Positions 5,207 to 45,723 of a stretch of 64,000 bases of DNA are shown piece by piece. Source of the stretch: Candidatus Shapirobacteria bacterium (lineage in GTDB: Bacteria; Patescibacteriota; Microgenomatia; UBA12405); assembly GCA_028700625.1 (NCBI GenBank), contig JAQVSI010000002.1, positions 3,276-67,275 of the forward strand, in the 5' to 3' direction. A program made the translations under genes and the position numbers. Position 1 is the stretch's first letter; each line of letters starts with the position of its first letter. The notes under the pieces were generated by a model. That model saw only the letters and a list, made by a program, of their open reading frames with translations. It did not search any database and was not told the DNA's origin.

Positions 5207-6752
5207 CAAAGATTTCTTTCGCCACATCATAAATATCTCCACCACCAGATTCACTTTTATTTTCCACAAATTGATCGCTCACATTTTCCATTGGAGTATC
5301 ATTTTTAATGACTAAAGGTTCTTTTTTATTTTTTCCCAAGACACATTCAAAACACAAATCAACTCCAAAAACTTTTGTCATACAGTCTTCTACTATTTTT
5401 CTATTTTTTGCTTCTTCCAATCTGTCTTTATGAAAGGGATAAAAAACTTCTAAAAGTAAGATTTTTCCTTTAATTGAACGTGGTCTAGATGCTCTCAAAA
5501 ACGCTTCTACTGAATGATTATAAGGTTTAATTGTCGTCAATAAATTTCTCCATTTCTCCTTAACTTTTTCAACCTCAATCGAACAATTTTTCATTTGTAC
5601 GGGCGTATTACAATACGCCTCTTCAGCTAAAACCTTCACTTCTTCTGTCTTTTCATCTGAGATCTGAGATCTGAAATCTGAAATATCGGGTTTGATATCT
5701 GAGATCTGAGATCTTTTTTGTCCCACAAACTCAACAACTGCCAATTCTAATGGCAACTGATCTATTTCTACTTCTTTTTCTTGTTTAGATGCTTTAACTA
5801 ATAAGTTTATAAAAAATTCAGATTCACTCAAATTTAAACCATTCTGGTTTTCAGAACCCAAACCATAAAAAGATAAAATTTTCTTTTGAAAAAAATTCAT
5901 TAATTTTAATCTAAAACTAGAAAAATCAATTCCCTCTGTTGCCATCTTTTCTAATTTTTCCAAAATTAATTTAATTTCACCTTTATCCAAATCTTTATCG
6001 AAATCTTCTTCACTATAATTACCACTCTTATCCAAATAAAACTTAAAAACTTCCTCTGACTTTAATTTTTTTCCCAACTGCAAATATAATTCATTAAAAT
6101 TTCTCTGCAAATTTCTAAAACTACCATCACTCTTTTCTATAATAAAATCAACTGCCTCCTTAGCAATTTCAATTCCTTCTCCATCAATAATTTTTTTAAG
6201 TGAATTATTTAAAGCATCTTTTCCACCTTTTCTAAAGTCAACCCTTACTAACCTCGATAATACTGTTTCAGGGATTTTTTCGGCATCAGTAGTGCACAAA
6301 ACAAAAATTGTATGTTTAGGCGGTTCCTCAATTAACTTTAGAAGTGCATTAAAAGCATCTTTAGTTAACATATGAACTTCGTCAATAATAAAAACTTTTT
6401 TAGTTAACTTACTTGGTAATAAATAAGCTTTATCTTTTAAACTTCGAACATCTTCAATTCCTCGGTTTGATGCTCCATCCATTTCAATAACATCCATCGC
6501 TGAACCTTTTAATATTTCTTTACAATTATCACATTTTCCACAAGGCTCGCCATCTTTCAAATCATTACAATTAGTTGCTCTGGCCAAAATTCTGGCTGCT
6601 GATGTTTTTCCCGATCCCTTTGGTCCAGAAAATAAAAAAGATTGAGGTACATCTTTAGCTGATAAAAATTTCTTCAAACTAATTGCCACATCGGTCAAAT
6701 CCAAATCTGAAAACTTAATTGGTCTATATTTTAAGTGAAAAACTGACATCAA
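5202..6752 (-). CDS. dnaX: DNA polymerase III subunit tau/gamma
   Basis: Walker A GPKGSGKTS and the Zn module CGKCDNCKEI. It carries in-frame heptamer repeats at 5655-5714 and a degenerate palindromic element at 5597-5619. Confidence 0.85.
   Translation of the reverse strand: MMSVFHLKYRPIKFSDLDLTDVAISLKKFLSAKDVPQSFLFSGPKGSGKTSAARILARATNCNDLKDGEPCGKCDNCKEILKGSAMDVIEMDGASNRGIEDVRSLKDKAYLLPSKLTKKVFIIDEVHMLTKDAFNALLKLIEEPPKHTIFVLCTTDAEKIPETVLSRLVRVDFRKGGKDALNNSLKKIIDGEGIEIAKEAVDFIIEKSDGSFRNLQRNFNELYLQLGKKLKSEEVFKFYLDKSGNYSEEDFDKDLDKGEIKLILEKLEKMATEGIDFSSFRLKLMNFFQKKILSFYGLGSENQNGLNLSESEFFINLLVKASKQEKEVEIDQLPLELAVVEFVGQKRSQISDIKPDISDFRSQISDEKTEEVKVLAEEAYCNTPVQMKNCSIEVEKVKEKWRNLLTTIKPYNHSVEAFLRASRPRSIKGKILLLEVFYPFHKDRLEEAKNRKIVEDCMTKVFGVDLCFECVLGKNKKEPLVIKNDTPMENVSDQFVENKSESGGGDIYDVAKEIFG
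5597..5619. repeat. palindromic element P1, a degenerate copy inside dnaX
   Basis: GTACGGGCGTATTACAATACGCC. It encodes AYCNTPVQ in the dnaX reading frame. Confidence 0.5.
5655..5714. repeat. ATCTGAG heptamer tandem repeats, two blocks inside dnaX
   Basis: CATCTGAGATCTGAGATCTGAAATCTGAAAT ... ATATCTGAGATCTGAGATCT. Confidence 0.6.
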
Positions 6753-7195: not shown

Positions 7196-7630
7196 CTATA
7201 TATTTTCTATTTTTTCTTTTACAATTTTTGAAATTAATCCACCATCCACTGTTCCACCAGTTTTAATCATCACTTCTTTCATAACAAATCCAAAATTATT
7301 CCCCTTATCTATTATCGCTTGGTTTACAATTTCTCTAACTTTTTCTTCACTGATATCTTCTGGTAAATATTCTTTAACTACTAAAATTTCATAATCTAAT
7401 TCGTCAACTAAATCTTGCCTGCCGCCTTTTAAAAACATTTCTCTTGATTCTTCCTTATTTTTTAATTCTTTTCTCAAAACCATCATCTCCTCAGCTTCTG
7501 TCAAAGCTCCGGGTGGCAGTTGTAATTCTTTTTTATCAATCAATGAAATCAAAAATCGCAACACATCCACCCGCTTATTATCACGGTTCTTCAACGCATT
7601 AAAACTATCTTGTTTTAATTTATTTCGCAT
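7196..7630 (-). CDS. GatB/YqeY domain protein
   Basis: YqeY-like sequence. The start was moved to the internal Met (MRNKLK) to avoid overlapping rpsU. Confidence 0.6.
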   Translation of the reverse strand: MRNKLKQDSFNALKNRDNKRVDVLRFLISLIDKKELQLPPGALTEAEEMMVLRKELKNKEESREMFLKGGRQDLVDELDYEILVVKEYLPEDISEEKVREIVNQAIIDKGNNFGFVMKEVMIKTGGTVDGGLISKIVKEKIENI

Positions 7631-7838
7631 CGTGTCTCCTAGAATTTTTTGCTTTTCGGCGACATTTATCTCGCCAAACAATTATTTTCTTTTTAGCATA
7701 TCTTTCTTCCGAAGGTTTAACATAAGAAGTTCTTTTTCTAACTTCCTCAGTAATATCCTCTTCCAAACAAAGTCTCCTAAATTTACCTATAATATCGTCT
7801 TTTGATTCTCCTTTATTTTTCTTTACTATAATTGGCAT
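7620..7838 (-). CDS. rpsU: 30S ribosomal protein S21
   Basis: 72 aa, very basic, with KRTSYVKPSEERYAKKK and an RRK-rich tail. Confidence 0.8.
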   Translation of the reverse strand: MPIIVKKNKGESKDDIIGKFRRLCLEEDITEEVRKRTSYVKPSEERYAKKKIIVWRDKCRRKAKNSRRHDAK

Positions 7839-7880
7839 TAAAAATTCACACCTCCTTTAATTAAAAGTTCCTTATTTTAC

Positions 7881-8573
7881 CTATAATTTACTATCTTGTA
7901 AACACTTTATTCTATCCATACTATTTGTTATTGGTAGGTTATTATAAGTACCACCAATTTGGCATTTGTCTACATTTGATGGGGTGACTGTTCCTTTTGA
8001 ACAAGAAATATAGTCTATACTGTTAACAACTCCATCTTTATTATAATCAGTTGTTTTGTCACAAGTAGAAGTATTATTAGTAGTTGTTGATGAAGAAGCC
8101 ACAGGTGCTAATGTTGTAACTGGATTAATTAGTGCTACAGTTGGAACCGGTGTTTCACTAGAAACAACTTCTGAAACCTCACCTTTAGTCTTAAAGCTAT
8201 ACATCATTCCCCCATTGTCAAAAACATTATCACTATCGACCACAATTTTATAATAGTAAGAAGTGTTACTTCTTAAATTAGTTAACAAAATATTGTGATT
8301 AATAGTTGGTTCAACATCTTCTGCCATTAAAAGTAAACTAGCCATATTTGTTCCGTAAAAAATCGAAGCTTTAATCGATTTATCTGTTATCCACGAAATT
8401 GTAGCCGTCTTGCCATCTTCACTAGGAACATTCGTTAAATTCTGAGGTTCGTAACCAGCAATAGCTCCACTCATAAAAGTTTTAGCCACATTCAAACCCA
8501 AAACAGACAAAATTATGACCAAAATCAAAATAGCAAAAATTATAACTGTCTTTAAACTAACTTTTCCCTTCAT
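7881..8573 (-). CDS. secreted or surface protein with an FN3-like domain and a C-terminal dockerin-like repeat
   Basis: Signal/TM N-terminus, an FN3-like YYYKIVV stretch, a Thr/Ser linker, then DYNKDGVVNSIDY matching the DxNxDGxVNxxD dockerin loop. Confidence 0.45.
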   Translation of the reverse strand: MKGKVSLKTVIIFAILILVIILSVLGLNVAKTFMSGAIAGYEPQNLTNVPSEDGKTATISWITDKSIKASIFYGTNMASLLLMAEDVEPTINHNILLTNLRSNTSYYYKIVVDSDNVFDNGGMMYSFKTKGEVSEVVSSETPVPTVALINPVTTLAPVASSSTTTNNTSTCDKTTDYNKDGVVNSIDYISCSKGTVTPSNVDKCQIGGTYNNLPITNSMDRIKCLQDSKL

Positions 8574-9253
8574 AAGAATTTTAAAAATAAAGCTGAAAGT
8601 ATACTAACAGCTCCAAAGACAATCAAACCAACAGTTGAAGCAATTCCTCCAGTCTGTGGTAATTCAGTTGTAGTTGCAGCAGGGGTAGTTGTTGGTGTCG
8701 AACTAGTAGTGGTACCAATTGTGCTATTTATCGTATAAGACCCGCTTCCATTAGCTGAACAAACAATAATGTCTTTAATTGGTGTTGTCTGAACGATATT
8801 TGAATCAGATGGTTGACCGTTACAAGTATAACTAACAATAGCCGTACCAGCTGCTTTTGCCTTAAAAGTAATAACCATTAAATTTCCATTTACCACTTCA
8901 TCACCAGCCGTCATTGAAGAATTACAACTTGCCGAAAATTTTCCAACAGGCCATTCATCTTGTTTATTAAAAGAACAAGATCCTCCAGTTGTTGTTTTAT
9001 TAAAAGCCATAGAAGTCGCTGTTTCTATTTTTGTTATTTCCAATTTAGTAGAATCAAAAGTTCCAATCATATCAACAGCTCCTGCTACTTGACCAGCTGA
9101 ATCAATCAACATGGTTACCGTAAAAGTATCATTAAGATTATATGTCCCTGTTGCAGGAGAAAAAGAAAGATTAGGATCAACTGCAGCTACAACATTACCC
9201 GACATCAACAAAAATGCCGCTGCTAAAAATAAATTCAATACTGTCTTTTTCAT
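8570..9253 (-). CDS. cell-wall-anchored cohesin-like protein (LPXTG)
   Basis: Signal peptide, a roughly 150-aa beta-rich domain with cohesin-like GTFDSTKLEI and ITFKAKAAG stretches, a TS-rich linker, then LPQTGG followed by a hydrophobic tail. Confidence 0.45.
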   Translation of the reverse strand: MKKTVLNLFLAAAFLLMSGNVVAAVDPNLSFSPATGTYNLNDTFTVTMLIDSAGQVAGAVDMIGTFDSTKLEITKIETATSMAFNKTTTGGSCSFNKQDEWPVGKFSASCNSSMTAGDEVVNGNLMVITFKAKAAGTAIVSYTCNGQPSDSNIVQTTPIKDIIVCSANGSGSYTINSTIGTTTSSTPTTTPAATTTELPQTGGIASTVGLIVFGAVSILSALFLKFL

Positions 9254-9255
9254 TT

Positions 9256-9861
9256 TTACTTAATTACATTAATTTCTAACTGATTACTAGCAAAAGGCAA
9301 AGCCTTAGCTGAAGTATTCTCTACAAATAGAGTAACAAATTTCTTATCTTCATTACCAGTAGCAACTTCAAACTTATATAAGCCAACTGTTTTTGCTTTA
9401 ACATCAAAACTAACTAAATTTACTAAATCATCAACATTAAAAGTAATTCCTTGTTTAGTCTCGATTAAATATTTAACCACAATCATTCCATCTTCTTTCA
9501 CTACCTTACCAATAATAGGTTTTTCTAATTTATCATCAAAAATCAATCCGCTAATCTCTAAATTCTTAGAATCATATTTGATTGCAATGTCTATTGCGTC
9601 TAAACTTTTCTTTTCTTTAACTAAAGCTTGTAATTTAATTTGATAATTTTTGCCAATTTTCATTTCTTTAGCATCTGTAACAAAAGACAAATCGAAATAA
9701 TTTTCATTTTTAACCTCTTGAATAATTTCATTTTTTTCAGCAATTACATCTGATGTAACAGTTTTCTTTTCTAGATTAGAAACCAGCATTATGCTTTCAA
9801 AAATAACTACTACAGCTATAACCGGTATTAAAGTTTTTAACATTTTGTTATTTGTTTCCAT
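9256..9861 (-). CDS. membrane-anchored cohesin-like protein
   Basis: N-terminal TM anchor, then IDIAIKYDSKNLEI and VSFDVKAK stretches that resemble cohesin strands. Confidence 0.4.
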   Translation of the reverse strand: METNNKMLKTLIPVIAVVVIFESIMLVSNLEKKTVTSDVIAEKNEIIQEVKNENYFDLSFVTDAKEMKIGKNYQIKLQALVKEKKSLDAIDIAIKYDSKNLEISGLIFDDKLEKPIIGKVVKEDGMIVVKYLIETKQGITFNVDDLVNLVSFDVKAKTVGLYKFEVATGNEDKKFVTLFVENTSAKALPFASNQLEINVIK

Positions 9862-9876
9862 TTTTTTAAATAATTT

Positions 9877-12015
9877 CTAATTAAGACTTTTTGCAGAAAA
9901 TTGTTTTTCTAAAGAATTCTTATAAATTTGTAAATCTAGTCCGTTAACATAACAATCTCCATTTAAGTCAGATTTCAAAACTCCATTAGTAGCAACTTCT
10001 TTATTCCATTCATTCTTCATTGCGGCAAAATCAAAACCATCTATAGAACCATTTCCATCAATGTCTCCATTCAAAATTGACCAATTATATAAAGTTAATG
10101 TTTTGTCAACCAAATCAGATACTTTTATTAAACTAGTATCCCCAGAAACAAATCCACCAGTTTGTTCATTACGACCATAAAGAGTTGTTAATAATTTAAG
10201 GTGGCTATCTTTAATATTGGTTACATATATATAAATTTTATCTGTTAATAAGTAAGTATTATCAAGTTCAAAATCTTTAATTTCATAAACTTGATAACCA
10301 TCATTGACTACTTTAACCGTTGAAAATTTATCATCAACTTTAGTTGCTATCATTTCCCTTGTAATCCCCGCATCTCCAGCCTTGGAAACGTTTACTTTTA
10401 ATTTCATTTGTTGATCTAAACACTTATCGTTAGCACCAGCAAAAACACCAAGCATTGAAACTTGCATTGTTAATTTTGGTGCAGTATAACCAGGATCACA
10501 ATCAACTGTTTCAGTCGCTGGATGAGTTACACCACCTGTACAAGTTCCAGTTTTAGTCCAAGTTTTAGTCTGTTTACCAGTACTAGGACAAGTTGTTGGA
10601 GATAAAGCTGAAGTCCAATTAGCTGTAGTACAAGCAATATCACATCCAGTAACGGCACCACAAAGAGCTTCACTGGAGAAAGTGGTAGTTCCATTGGCTG
10701 CGGTTGAACTTGCACTGTTTTTAGTACATACCCAATTTCCAGTTGAAGTATTACAAGAACCTTTTGTAAAGATAGTATAAGTTGTTTGATTACATCCAGT
10801 GTAATCTTCACATTTTTCTTTATCAGAAAAAGTGGTACTTCCATTAGGCGCTGTTGTACTTGTACTACTAGTACATGAATATTTACCTGTCGAAGTATTA
10901 CAAGAACCTTTTGTGTATATGGTATAAGTTGGAATTGAATTTGGTACACAACAACGATAAGTTGTATCTGTTGGTTTACTCATACATAAACCTTTTTCAA
11001 TTTTTCCAGTTCCCCCATTACAAGAACCACCAACAGTTGATGTTTCCCAAACTTTACATACGCCATCTTTATCAGTACATGGTTTATCTAAAACTGTTGC
11101 CGGAGCACAACATTTAACATCACTACCACTACTCATACAATAATTAGTTAAATAAGTTTTACCATTAGTACAAGCAGTAGTTGTTTTTTGACAAACACCA
11201 CCCGCGTTTACACATTTAGAATCTTGAACAATCACAGTACTGCCACTAGCTACACAAGCACCATTAGAACAAGTTTTCCCGGATGCATAACAAGCTTCTT
11301 TAGAATGCCATCCAAAATTAGTTCCACCCGTAGAGATATTAGGATAGCTACCACATACATATAAAACTGTTTTTGATTGACTAGTAGTATTACCACACTT
11401 AACATCACCACTATTACCAACAACACTCACTGTTTCAGAATCAGCAGCGCAAGTTGAAGGAGTTGAAGTTGAATTTGAATTTGAAGAAGTTGAGGTTGAG
11501 CAAACACCATTCAATAGAAGATTGTCGCAAGTACATTTATAATCCAAAAAAAGAGGATTATTGTCTTTTTTTAGCTTACAACTATAGCCGACATCGCAAC
11601 CAACATTTTTATAACCATTACAATTTGAATCCGAAGAAACACATTGATTTCCAATACAATTACCAGAAGCACACATCTTATCCATAATACAAAGAGCTTT
11701 TATTGTTCTTGGTGTACCAACAAACTCAGGAAAATCTGAATAAGGAACATTCTTCCAGTCACTTTCAGAATACTCACCAGACTTAATTAGGTCATCCCTA
11801 CCAAGACTTGAGAATGTTACTGTTGAATTAGGAACACCCAAAAGTGGAAATGCTTTACTCCTATTTTCTTGACTCTTTTTAACCAAATTAGTGGTTAAGG
11901 GCAAAGCTACTGCTAAAACCAACATAACAACCATAACTACAATTTGGGAAATACCTTTTTGTTTGTTCATTTTATATAAAAATCTTATAGAAAAGTAAAA
12001 CACTTTTGAAAACAA
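9877..12015 (-). CDS. large Cys-rich repeat surface protein with a C-terminal dockerin
   Basis: 712 aa with a signal/TM start and tandem ~45-aa repeats (YTI[YF]TKGSCNTSTG...). The C-terminus has two DxDxNGxIDxxD and DLNGDCYVNGLD calcium-loop repeats. Confidence 0.5.
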   Translation of the reverse strand: MFSKVFYFSIRFLYKMNKQKGISQIVVMVVMLVLAVALPLTTNLVKKSQENRSKAFPLLGVPNSTVTFSSLGRDDLIKSGEYSESDWKNVPYSDFPEFVGTPRTIKALCIMDKMCASGNCIGNQCVSSDSNCNGYKNVGCDVGYSCKLKKDNNPLFLDYKCTCDNLLLNGVCSTSTSSNSNSTSTPSTCAADSETVSVVGNSGDVKCGNTTSQSKTVLYVCGSYPNISTGGTNFGWHSKEACYASGKTCSNGACVASGSTVIVQDSKCVNAGGVCQKTTTACTNGKTYLTNYCMSSGSDVKCCAPATVLDKPCTDKDGVCKVWETSTVGGSCNGGTGKIEKGLCMSKPTDTTYRCCVPNSIPTYTIYTKGSCNTSTGKYSCTSSTSTTAPNGSTTFSDKEKCEDYTGCNQTTYTIFTKGSCNTSTGNWVCTKNSASSTAANGTTTFSSEALCGAVTGCDIACTTANWTSALSPTTCPSTGKQTKTWTKTGTCTGGVTHPATETVDCDPGYTAPKLTMQVSMLGVFAGANDKCLDQQMKLKVNVSKAGDAGITREMIATKVDDKFSTVKVVNDGYQVYEIKDFELDNTYLLTDKIYIYVTNIKDSHLKLLTTLYGRNEQTGGFVSGDTSLIKVSDLVDKTLTLYNWSILNGDIDGNGSIDGFDFAAMKNEWNKEVATNGVLKSDLNGDCYVNGLDLQIYKNSLEKQFSAKSLN

Positions 12016-12060
12016 ATATCAACGTGTCACTTTTATATTAATCTGAAAATAAGCTGATTC

Positions 12061-12690
12061 TTACTTAGTTAGCCTGCAACAAACTGGAGTTTTTCCAGAA
12101 CAAGTAGTTCCATTAATCACTGATCCACCCTTACCTATAGTACAAGTTCTCACATTACCAACACAAACACCACCTTTAGCAATACAACTTGGTTTTGGGG
12201 TTGGTGTTGCCTTGGCTAATTTACAACACTTAATATCATTAGCTCCATAAGTTCCTAAACATAACTTTGAATTCGATCCAATTACAGTTCCTCTAGAACC
12301 ATCAAAACTACAAGTCGAGCCATCTTTTACAGTAGTATAGTTACCCACTCGAGTACAAACCCCACCTGCATTTACACAACCCTCAGCCCCTGGTAATTTA
12401 CCAGTATCAGGCAAACAACAATAATAAGAAGTATTTTTACATAATCCTTTTACGGCCATTCCATTATATCCAGTGGATGTACTACAACTACCAGTTTGAT
12501 TATACGCATTACAAGTACCATATAATAATTTCCCCGTTAAATCCTTACTACTACAAGCCGCCACTCCTGCCGCACTACTTCTAGTATCCTGTCTATTTTG
12601 AATCACAGTTAAAAGAGCCAATCCAGCAATTGAAATAATTAACAAAATTAACAAAAGTTTTAGATTGCTTTTCTTTTTTATTTGTTTCAT
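12061..12690 (-). CDS. Cys-rich secreted protein, paralogous to modules of the 9877-12015 protein
   Basis: Signal peptide and a shared CVNAGGVC / YYCCLPDTGK motif. Confidence 0.4.
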   Translation of the reverse strand: MKQIKKKSNLKLLLILLIISIAGLALLTVIQNRQDTRSSAAGVAACSSKDLTGKLLYGTCNAYNQTGSCSTSTGYNGMAVKGLCKNTSYYCCLPDTGKLPGAEGCVNAGGVCTRVGNYTTVKDGSTCSFDGSRGTVIGSNSKLCLGTYGANDIKCCKLAKATPTPKPSCIAKGGVCVGNVRTCTIGKGGSVINGTTCSGKTPVCCRLTK

Positions 12691-12709
12691 TAATCAATGA
12701 TAACAGATT

Positions 12710-13780
12710 TTATTTTTTCAAAACTCGACCAATGTCTCCCACTGTAATCAACACAATCAAACTTAAAAGCAAAATCATTCCAATATTGTTTACTACCATT
12801 TCTAATTTTTGATTGGCTTTTTTCTTAAAAATCATTTCATAGAAAACAAAAATTATTCGACCTCCATCCAAAGCCGGAAAAGGTAAAACATTAACTATTG
12901 CCAAATTTACAGAAACTATTCCAAAAAAATGAACAACTGCTAAAAATCCTTGATTTTTATTAATTGCACTAGTTGCTTCAAACATTCCAATTGGACCACT
13001 AACATCTTTTGGAACATTCCCAGTAAATAATCCTCCAATCATTTTAAAAACACCATTTCCAATAATTTTTCCCCAAAAATAAGCTTCTTTAAAACCAGCC
13101 CCAATTCCTTCATAAAATCGATACCAAGGCACTTTAATCATCTCTGTGTTTGAAATAGCAATTCCAATTGCCCCTTCCCCTTCTGGTGGATTTGCTCTTA
13201 CTTCCACCTCTTTTTGTACGGGCGTATCGCCATACGCCCCTACAATCTCTAATTTGATATTTTCCCCTTTATATTTCCCAACCTCTGTTGTTAGTTCATC
13301 TGGTTTTTTAATTTCTTTATCTTGTACTTTCACGATAATGTCTTCTTCTTTCAATCCTGCTTTTTCAGCTGGTGAATTTTTTGCAATTCCAATAATCTTA
13401 ACTTTGTTTGTTTCGGTCGGCACTCCTAAAATTGTATAAACCACACTAAAAATTAAAATTGCCAAGACCAAATTCATGAACACTCCACCCAACACAATTA
13501 TTAACTTTTGCCATGGCTTTTTATGATTAAAAGAATTCCCTCCCTTACCATCACCATCTTCTCCATATAATTTACAAAATCCACCAATTGGTAACCAATT
13601 TATACTATATATAGTATCCCCAATTTTTTTACCAATTATTCTTGGAGGTAAACCCAAACCAAATTCTTCAACTCTGACTCCATTTTTTCTAGCTGCAAAA
13701 AAATGACCAAGTTCATGAACTAAAACTAAAATTGATAGCGCAACTATAAAAATTATCAAATCCATTCTTGATTTTAACAA
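12710..13780 (-). CDS. rseP: RIP metalloprotease RseP (M50 site-2 protease with PDZ)
   Basis: HELGHF zinc motif, a PDZ segment, and LDGG close to the C-terminus. The palindromic element at 13216-13243 lies in frame inside it. Confidence 0.8.
   Translation of the reverse strand: MLKSRMDLIIFIVALSILVLVHELGHFFAARKNGVRVEEFGLGLPPRIIGKKIGDTIYSINWLPIGGFCKLYGEDGDGKGGNSFNHKKPWQKLIIVLGGVFMNLVLAILIFSVVYTILGVPTETNKVKIIGIAKNSPAEKAGLKEEDIIVKVQDKEIKKPDELTTEVGKYKGENIKLEIVGAYGDTPVQKEVEVRANPPEGEGAIGIAISNTEMIKVPWYRFYEGIGAGFKEAYFWGKIIGNGVFKMIGGLFTGNVPKDVSGPIGMFEATSAINKNQGFLAVVHFFGIVSVNLAIVNVLPFPALDGGRIIFVFYEMIFKKKANQKLEMVVNNIGMILLLSLIVLITVGDIGRVLKK
13216..13243. repeat. palindromic element P3, inside rseP
   Basis: GTACGGGCGTATCGCCATACGCCCCTAC. 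It encodes GAYGDTPVQ in frame. Confidence 0.6.
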
Positions 13781-16831: not shown

Positions 16832-18997
16832 ATGTCTGATACTGCCAATCTCTCGATATTTGAAGTCCGTTTACCCCAAAACAACGAACATACTTTTGAG
16901 TCAATGTCTGCCCTGCTTTCAAATTTTACCCAATTTTCAAGTCTTTCTTTCTTTGAAAAATTAATTGGCAAGAAAAAAACCATTGTTTCTCTAGAAATAG
17001 TTTTAAAAGAAGGTCAAATTCATTTCTATATTGCTGCTCTTTCCAACAATAGCGAATTTCTCCGTTCTCAAATCTTAGCTCAATATTCCACCGCCATTTT
17101 AAGAGACACAAAAGATTTCCTTCTCAATCTTGATCCAGAATTACCAATCACTTATACTCAACTTGGTTTAGCTAGATCCTACGATTATCCAGTCAAAACT
17201 GCTAAAGATTTCAAAGACACCGACCCTTTAACCTCTGTTCTCGCTCCCCTTTCTAGATCTAATAACATTAAAGATTTTTTTATGTTCCAAATTCTTCTAA
17301 GTGGAGCTCCAAAAAATTGGCAGAGTAATATAATTGGTACTATTCAAAACGGAATTTTGGTAGACCAAGAAAGAAACCTTCGCACTGCCCATCCCGATAA
17401 AGCTATTTTGGAACAAAAAATTCAATTTCCAGGTCTTTATACTCAAATGAATCTTCTTACCAACAACCCTGCTCTAATGGTTTCCGTTTCTTCCTCTTTT
17501 GGTGCCTACACTAATCCTCGTGGTAATTTTATTAAAAGCTTCACTCCAGGGTTTTTTACAAAAAAGAAACTTAAAGAATCAATTTACCTTCGTAAATTTA
17601 ATCCAAAATTAAAAAGTCAAATTTTTAACACCGAAGAATTAGCTGCCATTTGGCATTTTCCAAATCTAAACACTAAACTTCCCAACATTGCTTGGGGTAA
17701 AAAACTCTATTCTGACCCCCCTGAAAATCTTCCAATTGCTGACGATTTAACTGCAGAAGAAAAAAACAAAATCACCTTTTTTGCCAAAACTGAATATCGC
17801 AACAAAGATTCGATTTTTGGCATCAAAGAAGGCGAAGATCGCCGTCGCCACACCTATATTATCGGTAAATCTGGTACTGGTAAAACTACTCTTATCGCCA
17901 ATATGGCCATCGATGATATTCGTAAAGGTCGCGGTGTAGCTGTTATCGATCCTCATGGTGATTTATGCAATAACATTCTTGACTATATTCCTAGTAATCG
18001 TGTTAATGATTGTTGTTATTTCAACCCCGCCGATCCAGATTATGTCTATCCTCTAAACGTTTTAGAAACCAAAAATGAATCCCAAAAAGAGCTGATTGCT
18101 TCTGGTGTTCTCTCTATTTTTAAAAAGCTTTATGGAAATATTTCTTGGGGTCCTCGTCTTGAACATATTTTAAGAAATACTGTTTTAACTTTAGTCAACA
18201 CTCCAGGAAGCGATCTTACTCACATTGTCGAAATTTTAACCAATAAAAACTACCGAGAAAAAGTTGTTTCTAAATTAACCAATCAAACTTTAATTAATTT
18301 TTGGCAAAATGAATTTAGTAGAATGGATCCAAAATTTCAAAATGAAGCTGTTTCTCCTATTTTAAACAAAGTTGGCCAATTCATTTCTTCAACCAATATC
18401 AGAAATACTGTTGCTCATGCCAAATCAAAAATAAATATCCAAGAAATTATGGACCAAAAGAAAATTTTAATTGCCGATCTTTCGACTGGTCGTCTTGGTG
18501 AAGATAATTCTGCTCTTTTAGGTGCCATGTTAATTACTCAAATTCAACTTTCAGCCATGAATCGTGTTTTTCAAACCAGCGATGAACGTTCCGATTTTTA
18601 TCTCTATGTCGATGAATTCCAAAACTTTGCCACTGAGGCTTTTATTAAAATTCTTTCAGAAGCCCGTAAATTTAAATTAAATCTTATTGTTGCCAATCAA
18701 TACATGTCCCAATTGGACAAACCAATTCAAGATGCTATTCTAGGCAACATTGGTTCAATTATGTCTTTTGTGGTCGGTAATCAAGATGCTTTTATCCTTG
18801 CCAAAGAATTTGGACCTCAATTCCCACCAGAAGATTTAATCAAAATTGGTAAATATCAGATAGTCTGTAAACTTTCTATCGATTCTGAAACAACTCAACC
18901 TTTCTATGCCACCACCCTAGCTCCACTTTCTTGTAAAAATCAACAACGCGACAAATTAATCCACACCTCTCAAGAACGCTGGGGTAAAAAGAAGTAA
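16832..18997 (+). CDS. TraD/VirD4-like P-loop ATPase (T4SS coupling-protein or DUF87-like) with a ~330-aa N-terminal domain of unknown function
   Basis: Walker A IIGKSGTGKTTLIAN, Walker B LYVDEFQNF, and a C-terminal TraG-D-like region. There are no N-terminal TM helices. Confidence 0.5.
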   Translation: MSDTANLSIFEVRLPQNNEHTFESMSALLSNFTQFSSLSFFEKLIGKKKTIVSLEIVLKEGQIHFYIAALSNNSEFLRSQILAQYSTAILRDTKDFLLNLDPELPITYTQLGLARSYDYPVKTAKDFKDTDPLTSVLAPLSRSNNIKDFFMFQILLSGAPKNWQSNIIGTIQNGILVDQERNLRTAHPDKAILEQKIQFPGLYTQMNLLTNNPALMVSVSSSFGAYTNPRGNFIKSFTPGFFTKKKLKESIYLRKFNPKLKSQIFNTEELAAIWHFPNLNTKLPNIAWGKKLYSDPPENLPIADDLTAEEKNKITFFAKTEYRNKDSIFGIKEGEDRRRHTYIIGKSGTGKTTLIANMAIDDIRKGRGVAVIDPHGDLCNNILDYIPSNRVNDCCYFNPADPDYVYPLNVLETKNESQKELIASGVLSIFKKLYGNISWGPRLEHILRNTVLTLVNTPGSDLTHIVEILTNKNYREKVVSKLTNQTLINFWQNEFSRMDPKFQNEAVSPILNKVGQFISSTNIRNTVAHAKSKINIQEIMDQKKILIADLSTGRLGEDNSALLGAMLITQIQLSAMNRVFQTSDERSDFYLYVDEFQNFATEAFIKILSEARKFKLNLIVANQYMSQLDKPIQDAILGNIGSIMSFVVGNQDAFILAKEFGPQFPPEDLIKIGKYQIVCKLSIDSETTQPFYATTLAPLSCKNQQRDKLIHTSQERWGKKK

Positions 18998-30387: not shown

Positions 30388-30463
30388 GCCTGAGTAGCTC
30401 AGTTGGTTAGAGCACCAGTTTTGTAAACTGGTTGTCGTGAGTTCAAATCCCACCTCAGGCTCA
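30388..30463 (+). tRNA. tRNA-Thr (anticodon UGU)
   Basis: A cloverleaf can be drawn by hand: acceptor GCCTGAG/CTCAGGC, anticodon loop TTTGTAA, T-loop GTTCAAATC. Confidence 0.8.
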
Positions 30464-30486
30464 TTTTTTGATAAAATACCAAACGT

Positions 30487-30559
30487 GCCCAGATAGCTCA
30501 GTTGGTAGAGCATCCCCTTGGTAAGGGGAAGGTCTTGGATTCGAGTTCCAATCTGGGCT
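30487..30559 (+). tRNA. tRNA-Thr (anticodon GGU)
   Basis: Acceptor GCCCAGA/TCTGGGC and anticodon loop TTGGTAA. Confidence 0.8.
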
Positions 30560-30593
30560 CAAAGGAGGGCATGCCCTCCGAAGCTTTAGCGAA

Positions 30594-30679
30594 GGAGGGG
30601 TGCTCCGAATGGTAAGGAACTTGTTTTGAAAACAAGCGTCAGCAATGACATGCAGGTTCAACTCCTGTCCCCTCCGCCA
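30594..30679 (+). tRNA. tRNA-Ser (anticodon UGA), type II with a long variable arm
   Basis: Acceptor GGAGGGG/CCCCTCC, anticodon loop TTTGAAA, variable arm GTCAGCAATGACATG, and an encoded CCA. Confidence 0.75.
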
Positions 30680-33343: not shown

Positions 33344-33754
33344 TTACTTAATTTGGCTTAAATCACCATTAATTATAATTGGACAAAAACCACCTATCTC
33401 ATCTTTTAAAATGCCTTCAGGAATCTGATTATATAAAAATATTTTTTTATTTAATCTAAAAGCATCATACATTTCCAAAAAAGTCGCTCCGCCAATATAA
33501 TTTTTGTAATCATCTTTATCAAAGTTTAAAACCAAAACCGCATCATTTTTACTAACAGAATCAACACTTTTTCTAAGCATTGTTGCTTTCCATTCAGCTC
33601 TTTCTTTTTCTCCTAAAGAACGAAAACTATCCTCAATATCAGTTTTGGGATATGTATTAGGAAAAGTTAATTTATGACCTAATTTTTCCAATTCTTTTTG
33701 AATAGGTGGAATCAAAGGATAAAATCTCTTACTACAAATTATAAAGATTTTCAT
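33344..33754 (-). CDS. hypothetical protein, possibly nucleoside 2-deoxyribosyltransferase-like
   Basis: Starts MKIFIICSKRF. The longer N-terminal extension in the ORF track overlaps tRNA-Ala and was discarded. Confidence 0.35.
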   Translation of the reverse strand: MKIFIICSKRFYPLIPPIQKELEKLGHKLTFPNTYPKTDIEDSFRSLGEKERAEWKATMLRKSVDSVSKNDAVLVLNFDKDDYKNYIGGATFLEMYDAFRLNKKIFLYNQIPEGILKDEIGGFCPIIINGDLSQIK

Positions 33755-33756
33755 AG

Positions 33757-33829
33757 TGGACCCAAGGGGACTCGAACCCCTGACCTTCCCCATGCCATGG
33801 GGACGCGCTACCAACGACGCTATGGGCCC
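33757..33829 (-). tRNA. tRNA-Ala (anticodon GGC)
   Basis: Acceptor GGGCCCA/TGGGTCC with the G3:U70 Ala identity pair, and anticodon loop ATGGCAT. Confidence 0.7.
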
Positions 33830-33880
33830 TTCAATGTTTCTTATTTTATCAAATTTTCTTTTGTGTTAACATTAGCTCGT

Positions 33881-34765
33881 ATGACCAATATAACTAAAGC
33901 CGTCATTGCCGCCGCTGGCCGAGGCACTCGTTTTCTTCCTGTTGTTAAATCTTATCCAAAAGAGCTAGTCCCTATTCTTTCTAAACCTAATATTCAATAT
34001 TTAATCGAAGAAGCCATTGGTGCTGGGATTACAGAAATTGTTATTATCCACAGATTAGGTGAAAATTCAATTGAAAAATATTTCTCTCCAGATCAAGATC
34101 TAGAAAATTATTTAATTCAAAATAATAAACTCGAATATCTCGACAGTTTAAAAAATATATGGTCCAAAGTTAAGCTAACTTTTATTCCTCAACCAGCCAA
34201 TCTTCCTTATGGTAATGGCTCCCCTGTTCTTGCCGCCAAAGAATTCATCGGTACCGACGACTTCGTTTATATGTTTGGCGACGATCTAACTGTCGAGCCT
34301 GTTGCTGGTCAATTTTTATCCAAAATGATCGCCACTTTTGCTCAATACCAACCAGCTTCAGTTATTGCTGTTAAAGATGTTGGTAAAGAAGAAATTTCTC
34401 GTTATGGTTCAGCTCAATATATTGAAGATCCAAATTACCCTCATCGAATCTCTGCGATGCTTGAAAAACTCCCAGCCAATCAAGCCCCATCAACTTTCGG
34501 TCAGGGTGGTCGTTTTGTTATTTCCAATAAGATAATTAGTATTCTAGAAAATCAATCAACCGGTCTTGGTAATGAACTTTGGTTAGCTGATGCTCAAAAC
34601 AACATGGCCAAAAACGATATTGTTCTTACTCAAGCTTTTGAAGGTGAAGAAGATTGGATGACCACCGGCGATCCTCTTCGTTGGCTTGAAGCCAATATTG
34701 CCGTCGCTCTTCAAAACCCTCAATTCAAAGACGATTTAACTCAATTTATTAACAATTTAAAATAA
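33881..34765 (+). CDS. galU: UTP--glucose-1-phosphate uridylyltransferase-like nucleotidyltransferase, paralog 1
   Basis: AAAGRGTRFLP motif. The start was set at MTNITKAV. Confidence 0.7.
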   Translation: MTNITKAVIAAAGRGTRFLPVVKSYPKELVPILSKPNIQYLIEEAIGAGITEIVIIHRLGENSIEKYFSPDQDLENYLIQNNKLEYLDSLKNIWSKVKLTFIPQPANLPYGNGSPVLAAKEFIGTDDFVYMFGDDLTVEPVAGQFLSKMIATFAQYQPASVIAVKDVGKEEISRYGSAQYIEDPNYPHRISAMLEKLPANQAPSTFGQGGRFVISNKIISILENQSTGLGNELWLADAQNNMAKNDIVLTQAFEGEEDWMTTGDPLRWLEANIAVALQNPQFKDDLTQFINNLK

Positions 34766-34773
34766 TTAAAAAA

Positions 34774-34852
34774 TCGAAATCACAATTTTTTGCAATATCG
34801 AACGTGCTACGCACATTCGCCAATTGTAAAAATTTCCGTGATGAGAATTTTT
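34774..34852. repeat. family X, copy 2, lying between the two galU paralogs
   Basis: Same architecture, with compensatory changes in the central hairpin. Confidence 0.55.
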
Positions 34853-34873
34853 AATTAAATTTAAAATAAAAAA

Positions 34874-35749
34874 ATGATTAAAAAAGCTGTAATTGCTGCC
34901 GCTGGAAGAGGAACTCGATTCTTACCAGTCGTCAAGGCCTATCCAAAAGAACTAGTCCCTATTCTTTCTAAACCTAATATTCAATATTTAATCGAAGAAG
35001 CCATTGGTGCTGGTATTACTGATATTGCCATCGTGATTCGCTCTGGTGAAACTAAAATTCAAAACTATTTTTCGGAAGATGTTAATCTAGAAAAATATCT
35101 TCTAGAAAACAACAAAATTGAGTATCTAGACAGCCTTAAATCGATTTGGTCCAAGGCTAAGCTCAGTTTCATCGTTCAACCAGAAAATCTACCCTATGGA
35201 ACTGGTTCCCCTCTTTTAGCCGCCAAAGAATTTGTCGGCTCCGATCCTTTTGTCTATATGTATGGCGATGATCTAACAATTGAACCTAATGCTGGTCAAT
35301 TTTTATCAAAAATGATCGCCACTTTTGAAAAATACCAAGCCAGTGAAGTTATTGCTGTCAAAGATGTCGGCATTGAAGAAATTAACAGATATGGCTCTGC
35401 TCAATACATAAATGATCCAAATTATCCAAACCGAATTTCTGCCATGCTTGAAAAACTACCAGCCTCAGAGGCCCCTTCAACTTTTGCCCAAGGCGGTCGT
35501 TTTGTGGTTACTTCCAAGATTTTTGCCATTTTAGAGCAACAAGGTCTTTCTCGTGACGGCGAACTTTGGTTTTCAGATGCCAGCAATACCCTAGCCAAAA
35601 CAGAAATAGTCCTAACTGAAAGTTTTAGTAAAGACGAAAATTGGATAACCACTGGCGATCCTCTCCGTTGGCTCAAAGCCAATATTACCCTCGCTCTTCA
35701 AGACCCAAACCTAAAAGACAACTTTCTTAAATATCTACAATTCCTTTAA
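34874..35749 (+). CDS. galU: UTP--glucose-1-phosphate uridylyltransferase-like nucleotidyltransferase, paralog 2
   Basis: About 70% identical to the upstream paralog. Same AAAGRGTRFLP motif. Confidence 0.7.
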   Translation: MIKKAVIAAAGRGTRFLPVVKAYPKELVPILSKPNIQYLIEEAIGAGITDIAIVIRSGETKIQNYFSEDVNLEKYLLENNKIEYLDSLKSIWSKAKLSFIVQPENLPYGTGSPLLAAKEFVGSDPFVYMYGDDLTIEPNAGQFLSKMIATFEKYQASEVIAVKDVGIEEINRYGSAQYINDPNYPNRISAMLEKLPASEAPSTFAQGGRFVVTSKIFAILEQQGLSRDGELWFSDASNTLAKTEIVLTESFSKDENWITTGDPLRWLKANITLALQDPNLKDNFLKYLQFL

Positions 35750-35750
35750 C

Positions 35751-35793
35751 TAAAACCCTCCGCCCTTCGGGCACCTCCCTTGACAGGGCGGCT
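35751..35793. repeat. hairpin family, copy F
   Basis: TAAAACCCTCCGCCCTTCGGGCACCTCCCTTGACAGGGCGGCT, immediately after the stop of the second galU paralog. Confidence 0.55.
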
Positions 35794-35907
35794 TACATAT
35801 TAAAAACATATTTTTATATAAAATATTTCTCCCTATAGTTAATTTATTATTGATACTTAGTTTTAAAAACAGCCTTGTTTGTGCCTATTTTTTACTAAAC
35901 TTACTTA

Positions 35908-35936
35908 TTGACAAGGACCTATAATAGATATATAAT
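35908..35936 (+). promoter_or_regulatory. sigma70-like promoter: TTGACA, 17-bp spacer, TATAAT
   Basis: Perfect -35 at 35908-35913, a 17-bp spacer, and a perfect -10 at 35931-35936. Confidence 0.5.
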
Positions 35937-35943
35937 GATATTA

Positions 35944-36088
35944 GAATTAATAAAATAATTCGAACTTTTAAAAATAAACTTAGTTTAAAGACAAAGGAGA
36001 GATTTGGAGTGTGGCTCCTCTAGAGTTTCGCACCCCGCTTCTCCTTTGACTTTAAATATTAAAGCTCCGCTACTGCGGGGCTTTTTTA
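35944..36088 (+). ncRNA. candidate small RNA (~145 nt) running from the promoter to an intrinsic terminator
   Basis: A consensus promoter is followed by the hairpin GCTCCGC-TACT-GCGGGGC and a T6 run at 36064-36087. The only ORF across it starts at TTG and reads through the terminator. Confidence 0.3.
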
Positions 36089-36107
36089 TGATCACAAATC
36101 CCTCTAA

Positions 36108-36184
36108 ATCTCCCTTTGACCTAAAGGGAGACTTTATTTTTATAACCCCTCCTTTAAGTCAAAGGAGGGGTAGGGGTGGATTTT
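36108..36184. repeat. dual-hairpin repeat, family Y, copy 1
   Basis: TCTCCCTTTGACCTAAAGGGAGA ... CCCCTCCTTTAAGTCAAAGGAGGGG TAGGGGTGGATTTT. Confidence 0.5.
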
Positions 36185-36510
36185 ATATCCTATAACCTTG
36201 ACAAATAAGCACTTTTGCAGTACAATACATTCACAATAATCTTTATGATTATTATGGCGTTTAGTGAAAGCAGGCATTTGCGCTTACTTTCCCAAAACAC
36301 CGTTCTTTAAAAAATAGTTGTTATTTGGAAAGTCTATAAATTTTCTTTATATATCTTGTAATATGTACCATCTTGGGCTCAACTCTTGAACCTAAAATGG
36401 TACATATTAGTAAAAACAAGAGAAATAAGTGGCATTAAAACCGCTTTTTATAATATATAGAAGCATGGGAAACCAAAAGGTAGGCCCGCTTCGGAAAGGA
36501 GAAAACATGA

Positions 36511-37287
36511 ATGGCTACGAAACCGGCTAAAGAATGTCTTTATTGTCACTCAAAAACAAGAAACACAAAAGCCAATTTTTGTTGGAACTGCGGAAAACCG
36601 TACCAACAAAACATTAAACTAATGATAACCTATATAGGTTATCGGATACTAGGAGGTATCACTATGAAAGAAAGCAAAGCAAAATTACTAATAGACGAAG
36701 AAGAAATGGAAGAAGAAAGAAGAGAAAAAAAAATGAAAACATTAAAAATCATCCTTAGAATTTTTGGAGTAATCTTTTTGATTGCCCTCATTTTGCTTGC
36801 AGGTTGGTTCCTCAGAGGTTGTAAATCTATTAATGTAAATAGTCCAACCCCGACACCAACCATCGCTGTAACAGCCACCCCTACTCCAACACCTATTGCT
36901 GAAGGAAAAAGTGAACAAACAGACGCCAACACCGTTCGTTTATTCATCTTAAACCCAACAGCATCACCGCAAACACAAATCGGACATCCGTCAATTTATG
37001 TTGAAACACACGTTTCAGGAAATCCGATTAAATATGTTTTCGATATTCCACAAGAATACGTTGGCATCGTCGGTGGCTATAATGTTGACGGAGTAGACAA
37101 AGGTGTATACAAAGCTTTTGGCCCTGGTCATTACGAAATCGTCGTCACTGACGGATTTGGTCTTATTACTAATGACAATTGGGCTCAAGCCGAGTTCGAA
37201 TTCCGTATCCAACAGGCCATTGATTATAAGTGGGCACATGCTCATATTATTCCTGGCCCTCTTGTAGACCCAACAATCACCAAATAA
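36511..37287 (+). CDS. hypothetical protein: N-terminal zinc ribbon, TM helix, Pro/Thr linker, C-terminal domain
   Basis: CLYCHS...CWNCG, a TM helix, then TPTPTIAVTATPTPTP. Confidence 0.4.
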   Translation: MATKPAKECLYCHSKTRNTKANFCWNCGKPYQQNIKLMITYIGYRILGGITMKESKAKLLIDEEEMEEERREKKMKTLKIILRIFGVIFLIALILLAGWFLRGCKSINVNSPTPTPTIAVTATPTPTPIAEGKSEQTDANTVRLFILNPTASPQTQIGHPSIYVETHVSGNPIKYVFDIPQEYVGIVGGYNVDGVDKGVYKAFGPGHYEIVVTDGFGLITNDNWAQAEFEFRIQQAIDYKWAHAHIIPGPLVDPTITK

Positions 37288-37356
37288 CAACTATCCGGCT
37301 GGAAGAAAGCTCTTTATTTAGCATTTATTTGCTACTTAAAACTTTCTTACCAGCCC

Positions 37357-37405
37357 CGATCATCCGATGCGTGTCGGATCTGATGAGTCCAAAAGGACGA
37401 AATCG
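37357..37405 (+). ncRNA. hammerhead ribozyme, type III
   Basis: CGAUC|AUCCGA-UGCGUG-UCGGAU-CUGAUGA-GUCC-AAAA-GGAC-GAAA-UCG. The full conserved core is present with stem I of 6 bp, stem II of 4 bp and stem III of 4 bp. Confidence 0.7.
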
Positions 37406-37416
37406 AAAAGAATACT

Positions 37417-43168: not shown

Positions 43169-43773
43169 ATTATTTTTTTATTTTTTAACTTTTCTAAAAT
43201 ATCTTTATGAATAATATCCATATCTCTATTCCCGTCGATTACGACCACATCATCACCCATTTTTTCACAAAACCACAAATAAGACCTTCTACATTGTTCC
43301 AATTTTTCCTTTCTTTCAAAAATTGTTTTTGTTGATCTTCCCTCATCAATTCTTTTTATTGCCGTTTCTGCGTCAATATCAAGAAAAATAGTCAAATCTG
43401 CTCTTGGAACCACATTTTCATTTAACTCCAACATCATTTGTTTCTTTTCTTCTTCAGTATAAGCCACTGTCGAACCATAATATCTATCAGATATAACAAA
43501 TTCATCATTTTCAATTGCTGGTTCTATTACTTTTTTATAATGGTCTCTTCTGTCTGCCACAAAACACAACTGCAATGCCAAAGGATCCATTTTTTCTCCA
43601 CCATTAAGAGTAACCTCTATTAATTTTCCCACTGGTAAATTTCTAGTATGTTCACAAGTTACTATTGTTTTAATTCCGTTTTGTTCAAAATAATTCTGCA
43701 ATTTTTCGATTTGAGTACCCTTACCGCAGCCATCAATCCCTTCAAAAACAATAAATTTTCCTTTTTTATTCAT
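43165..43773 (-). CDS. tmk: thymidylate kinase
   Basis: FIVFEGIDGCGKGTQ. Confidence 0.8.
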   Translation of the reverse strand: MNKKGKFIVFEGIDGCGKGTQIEKLQNYFEQNGIKTIVTCEHTRNLPVGKLIEVTLNGGEKMDPLALQLCFVADRRDHYKKVIEPAIENDEFVISDRYYGSTVAYTEEEKKQMMLELNENVVPRADLTIFLDIDAETAIKRIDEGRSTKTIFERKEKLEQCRRSYLWFCEKMGDDVVVIDGNRDMDIIHKDILEKLKNKKII

Positions 43774-45642: not shown

Positions 45643-45723
45643 ATTACTCTTGCTCGAAAGTTTTAGAGATCCGACTTTACGGTTGCGGCACAGTCTAGGA
45701 ATTACACCTAGTTCCCTATTAAA

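Follow-up and report, generated by a model that had tools for sequence, protein, structure and literature searches.

A predicted non-cellulosomal cohesin-dockerin surface-display operon in Candidatus Shapirobacteria

Results

Organization of the Gene Cluster

Five consecutive, co-directional open reading frames (ORFs) lie on the minus strand at 7881-12690 of a 64-kb stretch of Candidatus Shapirobacteria DNA (contig JAQVSI010000002.1; the whole stretch is referred to here as the window), and these are designated E, D, C, B, and A in the 5'→3' order of that strand. An original prediction, made from the nucleotide sequence, had paired two cohesin-like proteins (B and C) with two dockerin-bearing proteins (A and D) and placed a further Cys-rich gene (E) beside them; all five ORFs were recovered with their coordinates and strand. 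Profile searches, structure prediction, and comparison with related loci suggest that the cluster is probably, though by no means certainly, a non-cellulosomal cohesin-dockerin surface-display operon belonging to the conserved core of one Shapirobacteria/Woesebacteria sub-lineage within the candidate phyla radiation (CPR).

The stop codon of D lies 15 bp from the start of C, a 2-bp gap separates C from B, and B and A overlap by 4 bp (ATGA, -4 bp). The cluster sits between rseP and rpsU, with genes for an RseP-type M50 protease (rseP), frr, tsf, and rpsB on one side and rpsU, yqeY, ybeY, and dnaX on the other. When 7400-13000 was searched for promoters and terminators, the counts were no higher than those obtained with shuffled sequence. 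The G+C content of the window is 28-36%. Proteins identical to C and D in public records are from Candidatus Shapirobacteria bacterium (a 67.8-kb MAG contig), a member of the Patescibacteria/Microgenomates group (CPR), and the CPR host that had been guessed from the sequence was therefore correct. No catalytic domain was found in the five proteins by Pfam and NCBIfam scans. The principal features, all on the minus strand, are as follows.

12061-12690, minus strand: E, a 209-residue predicted secreted Cys-rich protein lacking a dockerin (ORF; modules from pattern listing)
9877-11970, minus strand: D, a 697-residue predicted secreted mosaic Cys-rich dockerin protein (from the family-conserved ATG; the maximal ORF extends to 12015)
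10954-11851, minus strand: hypervariable cassette of D, comprising most of the Cys-rich N-terminal region and including both 6-Cys modules (blastn of loci L005, L006, and L007)
10498-10929, minus strand: two 49-residue 4-Cys tandem protein repeats of D (residues 363-460) and a 45-residue module (462-506; CTTANWTSALSPTTCPSTGKQTKTWTKTGTCTGG...)
10081-10473, minus strand: constant pre-dockerin module of D (approximately residues 515-645), in the X-module position, with invariant C532 (conserved across D relatives)
9910-10068, minus strand: type I dockerin of D (residues 650-702), with calcium loops DIDGNGSIDGFD and DLNGDCYVNGLD (Pfam Dockerin_1)
9256-9861, minus strand: C, a 201-residue protein with an N-terminal transmembrane (TM) helix and a predicted cohesin-fold domain (AlphaFold 2 and Foldseek)
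8570-9253, minus strand: B, a 227-residue single-cohesin LPXTG protein (ORF, family profile, and AlphaFold 2 model)
7881-8573, minus strand: A, a 230-residue protein whose start overlaps the stop of B in ATGA (ORF, Pfam, and ortholog alignment)

Every motif quoted in the original prediction is present in the translations, namely GTFDSTKLEI, ITFKAKAAG, LPQTGG, IDIAIKYDSKNLEI, VSFDVKAK, DYNKDGVVNSIDY, NGDIDGNGSIDGFDF...DLNGDCYVNGLDL, and CVNAGGVC.

B and C Are Predicted to Share the Cohesin Fold

Inspection of the B polypeptide reveals a signal peptide, a cohesin region at approximately residues 25-180 (nt 8714-9181), a Thr/Ser/Pro-rich linker, LPQTG (nt 8648-8662), a hydrophobic helix, and a KFL tail; the hydrophobic stretch that follows LPQTGG is ∼21 residues long. 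The sorting motif is kept in orthologs as LP[QKR][TA]G, and 16 of 36 B relatives match Gram_pos_anchor at E ≤ 0.01. The B sequence itself yields no match to Pfam Cohesin (PF00963) at E ≤ 1. Nonetheless, 29 of the 36 aligned family members, which are 32-70% identical to B, match PF00963 (best E = 3.5e-12), and the family carries the NCBI label “cohesin domain-containing.” The best match of the B family profile in the PDB was the cohesin 4ums (E = 0.0026), and most of the other sub-threshold matches with E < 0.1 were also cohesins. Structure models were produced for B and C with AlphaFold 2. That of B has a predicted local distance difference test (pLDDT) score of 84, and when it was compared with the PDB by Foldseek, the top ∼40 matches were all cohesins (E = 1.2e-9; TM-score on the target 0.72-0.81). 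On the strength of this model, B is a protein of the cohesin fold, a nine-stranded jelly roll.

C and its 41 relatives are described as “hypothetical protein” wherever a source name is given. Pfam provided no match for C and no precomputed match in any of the 41 relatives. The C family profile matched four PDB chains weakly (E = 0.0068-0.42), all of them cohesins, and alignment of the C and B families by hhalign gave a probability of 34%. The model of C has pLDDT values of 81-98 per 10-residue block from residue 51 onward, and the domain it describes spans approximately residues 55-201 (nt 9259-9699). Its top 44 Foldseek matches in the PDB are all cohesin modules (E = 4.5e-9; TM-score on the target up to 0.79). 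Because the model is confident and all 44 of these matches are cohesins, C is, at the level of predicted structure, a second cohesin, and its anchor is the hydrophobic helix at its N terminus. The two cohesin-like candidates of the original prediction thus stand by fold, but not by a Pfam Cohesin match of either sequence, and since both sequences miss that family, their assignment required family profiles and structure prediction.

The TM helix of C (residues 6-31, nt 9769-9846; conserved IPVIAVVVIFES motif) is more conserved than its cohesin domain, with 62-82% identity across the type groups described below against 34-39% for the cohesin. This conservation hints at a conserved intramembrane partner; A, with its likewise highly conserved N-terminal part, is one possibility. 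Within the helix, IPVIAVVVIFESIMLVS, a Ser residue is invariant and a Phe-Glu pair is nearly so, and these lie inside the membrane segment.

D Carries a Type I Dockerin behind a Variable Cys-rich Region

The C terminus of D had been recognized as a type I dockerin with duplicated calcium loops, and Pfam bears this out: Dockerin_1 (PF00404) matches with 40.2 bits (cutoff, 22.9; E = 4e-10) over positions 2-56 of the 57 in the profile. With this significant match and the Cohesin matches of 29 of 36 B relatives, neither half of the proposed cohesin-dockerin pairing lacks profile support, that for the cohesin half coming from relatives of B. A D-identical protein is named “dockerin type I domain-containing protein” by NCBI. 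Dockerin loops were found only in A and D across the 64-kb window.

The ORF of D was also confirmed, but not the length of 712 residues originally assigned to it. The 712-residue ORF begins at TTG, whereas all relatives and the NCBI model (697 residues, P0130) start 15 codons downstream at an ATG, with the sequence M-N-KQKGISQI. Given this agreement, the start is most likely the ATG at 11970, yielding a 697-residue protein (9877-11970). Tandem repeats of ∼45 residues had likewise been noted. The repeats are real, but the tandem units are 49 residues long (residues 363-411 and 412-460; 30/50 identical at the protein level), and the 45-residue module (residues 462-506) recurs in relatives. No tandem repeat was detected in D at the DNA level, and the repetition is visible only in the protein.

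In D relatives, the N terminus is almost invariant, conforming to M-x-KQKGISQI-(hydrophobic)-LP-x-T-x2-LV-x-KSQENRSKA (11851-11970 in the window). Between this segment and the constant C-terminal module plus dockerin lies a Cys-rich mosaic that varies from genome to genome. A type IV pilin-like signal, read as KQKG|ISQI, was considered for the N terminus of D and rejected, as there is no Pfam N_methyl match at E ≤ 1 and position +5 is not Glu; the likeness of KG|ISQI to a prepilin site is superficial. E and other small Cys-rich proteins have only the post-helix portion of the D-type N terminus, Q-[ED]-[NT]-R-S-x-A (E: 12571-12690), and no other protein of the window has this motif. A lineage-specific role in signal-peptidase recognition or in sorting is possible.

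The constant module of ∼130 residues precedes the dockerin in all D-family proteins. Identification of this module as an X-module is not supported by sequence, since neither the PDB nor Pfam yielded a relative, and for that reason the likeness is retained as a positional analogy only. Cys-532 of the module is always accompanied by a Cys in or adjoining dockerin repeat 2 (Cys-688 here). This co-occurrence suggests a disulfide staple between the constant module and the dockerin.

A Combines an FN3-like Domain with a Degenerating Dockerin

A comprises an N-terminal TM or signal-anchor segment, an FN3-like domain (residues 44-129), a Thr/Ser/Pro-rich linker, and a Cys-bracketed dockerin-like region (residues 171-224, nt 7902-8063). 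The FN3-like match, to Pur_ac_phosph_N, scored 28.9 bits against a cutoff of 30, with confident precomputed matches in some orthologs. Dockerin_1 scored 16.1 bits, under the 22.9 cutoff, with a single repeat matched. The first repeat has a canonical calcium loop, and the second (TYNNLPITNSMD) is degenerate in this genome. The FN3-like and dockerin architecture first ascribed to A therefore holds for its layout and first calcium loop, but both Pfam scores fall short of their cutoffs and the second loop is degraded.

Alignment of 13 A orthologs showed two repeats, each bracketed by Cys residues (C-x4-DYNKDGVVNSxDY-x3-C). Most orthologs have kept repeat 2 intact, and three species have lost it. 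Among the related loci, which are denoted here by L numbers, two canonical repeats are kept in L001, L003, L009, L012, and L017-L020, and the L003 ortholog has a confident precomputed Dockerin_1 match. In L013 (5000-5650), L015 (11330-11965), and L016 (11231-11842), repeat 2 is wholly deleted and one Cys-bracketed repeat is left; by their sequences, these three proteins are possible natural single-repeat dockerins.

E Shares a 6-Cys Module Family with D

E consists of an N-terminal hydrophobic segment, the sequence QNRQDTRSSA, and three 6-Cys modules (residues 46-92, 105-156, and 169-205), and it has no Pfam or NCBIfam match. The kinship of E and D, previously suggested by a shared motif, was substantiated by blastp (E = 2e-8), which indicates a real common module family, and D carries two copies of the 6-Cys module of E. 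Among relatives, the pattern C-x3-[GSKD]-G-x-C...C...C...CC describes 27 distinct modules in which only the second Gly is invariant. The E family is small; an exhaustive search of 1.84 billion representatives produced 7 clusters, one of which (P0161) is apparently a false positive caused by low complexity.

An E-like Cys-rich protein (231 residues, 7.8% Cys) is encoded in L001 at 5812-6507, between tsf and frr and not adjoining D. From this placement it follows that small Cys-rich paralogs move around near the locus.

The Operon Is Conserved across Related Loci

Approximately 20 related loci, all Shapirobacteria/Woesebacteria-like, were collected by exact-protein look-ups and by a scan of species-representative genomes. 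The order D-C-B-A was kept in every related locus spanning it. The general arrangement is one or two large variable Cys-rich proteins followed by C-B-A, and the block lies between rseP and rpsU where flanks are present. The surface-complex architecture originally proposed was retained, but the cluster is not a minimal accessory adhesin island, being a syntenic core operon of the lineage with a variable cargo gene. Records from ENA for metagenome-assembled genomes (MAGs) titled “uncultured Gammaproteobacteria bacterium” (L012, L013, L016, L017, L018, and L020) also carry C-B-A. These titles look like mislabels, because the flanked loci among them show rpsU-yqeY-ybeY-dnaX synteny and DnaX proteins 48-76% identical to that of the window.

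Cohesins and the D Dockerin Change Type Together

Identities to the window proteins were tabulated for two groups of genomes, group 1 consisting of L001, L009, and L010 and group 2 of L003, L013, and L015.

Group 1: DnaX 79%; B cohesin 62-70%; C cohesin 72-74%; D C terminus 40-59%
Group 2: DnaX 74-76%; B cohesin 41-42%; C cohesin 34-39%; D C terminus 29-36%

In both groups, the N-terminal part of A is 73-80% identical, the A dockerin 63-68%, and the TM helix of C 62-82% (76-79% in group 2). The D dockerins fall into at least three sequence types, which track the same grouping. As judged from these comparisons, the B and C cohesins and the constant module plus dockerin of D change type together, beyond overall genome distance. 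A takes no part in the switch and stays conserved, as do the TM helix of C and the housekeeping genes. The co-switching is indirect evidence that the B and C cohesins and the dockerin end of D interact.

The Cys-rich Cassette of D Is Exchanged between Near-identical Strains

Three independent assemblies, L005, L006, and L007 (two from JGI and one from ENA), are 99.9% identical to the window from 3654 or 7116 to exactly 10953. Beyond this position lies unrelated in-frame Cys-rich sequence, 899 bp in the window versus 614 bp in L005 (239-852). On the far side of the cassette (11852-12089), which holds the D signal sequence and the 3' end of E, identity resumes at 96.6%. Both versions are intact ORFs composed of the same kinds of modules, and the occurrence of intact alternative cassettes in near-identical strains implies that the proposed binding end of D is exchangeable. 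When metagenomes were scanned for further cassette alleles with a 44-nt pattern taken from the constant flank of the junction, only the already known contig was returned.

Other Features of the Window

An AdoCbl-II riboswitch was identified at 45656-45731 on the minus strand (44.6 bits against a cutoff of 36.5), between a 150-residue ORF (45724-46176) and a 309-residue ORF (44713-45642). The former lies downstream of a class II ribonucleotide reductase (46183-48654), and its N terminus resembles PduO-type cobalamin adenosyltransferases. The latter, which is soluble, unannotated, and without a Pfam match, would be the gene regulated by the riboswitch. At 38295-40928 on the plus strand, an 877-residue protein with approximately eight predicted TM segments and no Pfam match adjoins glycosyltransferase and nucleotidyl-transferase genes (33698-38286) in a region of slightly higher local G+C (0.36); it could be a polymerase or transferase of envelope glycans that has escaped annotation. 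A 721-residue TrwB/VirD4-like and HerA/DUF87-like ATPase is encoded at 16832-18997 on the plus strand and is kept beside topoisomerase I in a related Shapirobacteria genome (L001, 1685-3850), where it has a precomputed DUF8128 match. A ribosomal protein L10 leader (57901-58019, plus strand; 52 bits) and a tRNA-Thr/Thr/Ser cluster (30388-30679, plus strand) are ordinary features.

Discussion

Proposed Mechanism of Surface Display

The layout of the five proteins is compatible with the following mechanism. B would be exported by Sec, and a sortase encoded elsewhere would link it covalently to peptidoglycan through LPQTG, placing one cohesin at the wall surface. C would present a second cohesin near the membrane on its N-terminal signal-anchor helix, assuming the topology predicted for it. 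D would be secreted, with cleavage probably following the conserved ...RSKA, and would be kept at the surface solely through calcium-dependent docking of its constant module and dockerin onto B, C, or both, so that its small disulfide-rich modules would point outward as a ligand-binding end. A, the second conserved dockerin bearer, could serve as an adaptor or as part of the envelope, perhaps in association with C within the membrane. Specificity would then be modular at two levels, with the type of cohesin and D dockerin differing between species and the Cys-rich cassette of D differing between near-identical strains.

Such two-level variation appears to be the pattern expected when diversifying selection acts on a surface adhesin or a receptor-binding protein. 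The most likely function, as read from the sequences, is calcium-dependent display of variable Cys-rich ligands. Their targets could be the surface of a host or partner cell or, alternatively, a substrate. Attachment to a partner organism, which the original prediction had proposed for a CPR-like host, would be one possible role of this putative complex.

Several observations weigh against a display operon of this kind. The sortase signal suggested for B has the expected LPQTGG, hydrophobic helix, and KFL tail, but it falls just under both curated LPXTG cutoffs, scoring 16.5 bits against 20 for Gram_pos_anchor and 15.4 against 15.9 for TIGR01167. The sortase gene whose presence the original prediction had proposed to check was found neither in the 64-kb window nor in 231 kb of related loci by a TLxTC regular expression, a relaxed motif needing flanking His and Arg, or phmmer with S. 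aureus SrtA. E has no dockerin that would retain it at the surface. The Cys-rich modules have no known ligand, and disulfide-rich extracellular proteins would need an oxidizing route. The dockerin of A is conserved while both cohesins change type, and for this reason it is possible that neither B nor C is a partner of A. The co-switch is drawn from approximately eight genomes and could partly reflect lineage-specific rate changes. Finally, the window allele of the D cassette was seen in one assembly only, a MAG; an assembly join between co-existing strains is accordingly possible, although the ORF is intact.

A TIVTC match at 43168-43776 was examined as a candidate sortase and discarded, the gene being that of thymidylate kinase. 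A sortase has been reported in a closed Microgenomates genome (PMC7143001).

Alternative Explanations

The most serious competitor is an envelope scaffold in which cohesin-dockerin pairs tie the membrane proteins A and C to wall-linked B, with D as an accessory surface coat. The C-B-A core is syntenic among rseP, frr, tsf, rpsB, and rpsU, with PBP2, MreB, and a Wzy-like ligase further along, and A and C each possess an N-terminal hydrophobic helix. The TM helix of C (62-82%) and the N-terminal part of A (73-80%) are, moreover, highly conserved where the cohesins diverge. A purely structural function nevertheless leaves the joint type switch of both cohesins and the D dockerin unexplained, and likewise the replacement of the outer region of D in strains that are otherwise 99.9% identical. 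Proteins that face outward typically show both patterns, and we regard the scaffold as unlikely. It is also doubtful, and in our estimation rather more so, that the proteins do not bind one another, the cohesin fold serving as a generic immunoglobulin-like stalk and the dockerins as calcium-binding modules for a polysaccharide or a component of a partner cell. The lack of co-variation between the A dockerin and either cohesin would fit that explanation, as would the failure of the B sequence and the whole C family to match Pfam Cohesin. Non-cellulosomal modules are, furthermore, described as widespread and often without known partner (Peer et al. 2009, as cited in PMC10066038). Set against these points, cohesin and dockerin genes adjoin in one operon in every locus, and the dockerin end of D switches with both cohesins, which is hard to explain without interaction.

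There is little to recommend a miniature cellulosome, in which B and C would anchor dockerin-bearing glycoside hydrolases encoded elsewhere. It is true that the models of B and C match type I cellulosomal cohesins best. However, no catalytic module of a carbohydrate-active enzyme and no carbohydrate-binding module (CBM) was found in A-E or in 20 further window proteins scanned, and a cellulosome reading was rejected on these grounds; dockerin loops are confined to A and D, and B and C have one cohesin each, with no multi-cohesin scaffoldin. Least probable of all, and to us barely credible, is that the Cys-rich modules, whether displayed or released, act in the manner of defensins or toxins to injure a host cell. 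The 6-Cys spacing, C-x6-C-x5-14-C-x9-17-C-x5-11-CC with a GG-x-C start, resembles the β-defensin pattern. This resemblance was not upheld in the D and E modules, for which hhalign gave a probability of 17% over 10 columns; a PDB profile search with the 6-Cys module alignment recovered no defensin, and Pfam likewise gave no match. Calcium-dependent display of variable ligands by a cohesin-dockerin system remains the interpretation that we prefer.

Relation to Known Cohesin-Dockerin Systems

The closest known analogue, though not the same system, is the ScaE-CttA pair (and ScaE-ScaB) of Ruminococcus flavefaciens. There, sortase anchors ScaE through its LPXTG signal, and the single cohesin of ScaE binds the X-module-dockerin (XDoc) of the adhesin CttA, the N-terminal modules of which attach the cell to its substrate, and all of the genes are in one sca cluster (PMC5301203, PMC4266597). 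B similarly combines a single cohesin with a C-terminal LPXTG, its cohesin being the proposed socket for a non-enzymatic binding protein. D resembles CttA in that its C terminus is a constant module followed by a dockerin, its N terminus is proposed to bind, and the genes form one cluster. Unlike the Ruminococcus system, the operon described here occurs in a CPR host, and its cluster has no cellulosome, multi-cohesin scaffoldins, CBMs, or enzymes; it instead adds one more cohesin, the membrane-anchored C, and one more dockerin protein, A, which has an FN3-like domain. The dockerins are predicted to be Cys-stapled, the pre-dockerin module of D has no detectable similarity to X-modules, and the cargo of D is a strain-variable Cys-rich mosaic. 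The best structural matches of B, moreover, are type I cohesins, and ScaE itself (2zf9) ranks lower.

Use of these folds outside cellulose degradation has parallels in non-cellulosomal modules such as those of the Clostridium perfringens toxin and glycoside hydrolase complexes and of Archaeoglobus fulgidus (2xdh), and the models of B and C both match 2xdh, 2jh2, 2vo8, and 2w1n. In contrast to those modules, which occur in isolation on enzymes, those considered here lie in a conserved operon of four genes, are joined to defined anchors (LPXTG and TM), and co-vary in type. The best fold matches of B and C are to Clostridium/Acetivibrio type I pairs (6kgf, 1ohz, 2ccl, 3ul4, and 4dh2), and the D dockerin has the duplicated 12-residue calcium loops of Dockerin_1 that are found in those pairs. 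Sequence identity to them is nonetheless only 12-22%, and their dockerins differ from those of this operon, in which conserved Cys residues occur in loop 2 of D and bracket each repeat of A and in which the second repeat of A is decaying or lost in several species. Non-cellulosomal dockerins have also been proposed as adhesins in the giant proteins of Omnitrophota (PMC10066038).

Implications for CPR Surface Biology

The individual domains are not new, since NCBI already labels the B family as cohesin and the D family as dockerin type I. A literature search turned up no account of such an operon in either Patescibacteria or Microgenomates, and the cohesin nature of C, the operon and its conservation, the joint change of type, and the exchange of cassettes all appear to be undescribed in the literature searched.

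Recognition of partners or substrates by uncultivated CPR bacteria outside Saccharibacteria is poorly understood, and the literature searched implicates mainly type IV pili. The locus turns CPR surface attachment into a set of small, soluble, and testable protein-protein interactions. Its specificity groups, together with the strain-variable ligand cassette, could mark host range in metagenomes. The cohesin-dockerin toolkit is also extended, by putatively Cys-stapled dockerins and by a possible single-repeat dockerin. Were the operon to prove an envelope scaffold only, it would still be a lineage-defining surface structure, albeit of narrower interest.

More tentatively, and as a proposal that we think is more likely wrong than right, the operon may be the partner-recognition apparatus of this Microgenomates lineage. 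Two tiers of cohesin sockets, one at the membrane and one at the wall, would then receive interchangeable dockerin-tagged Cys-rich ligands, with socket and plug specificity switching between species and the cassette being exchanged between strains to track the surfaces of hosts or partners. If this is true, the plug-and-play principle of the cellulosome would have been repurposed for episymbiotic attachment, by a route separate from type IV pili, the structures hitherto implicated in these bacteria.

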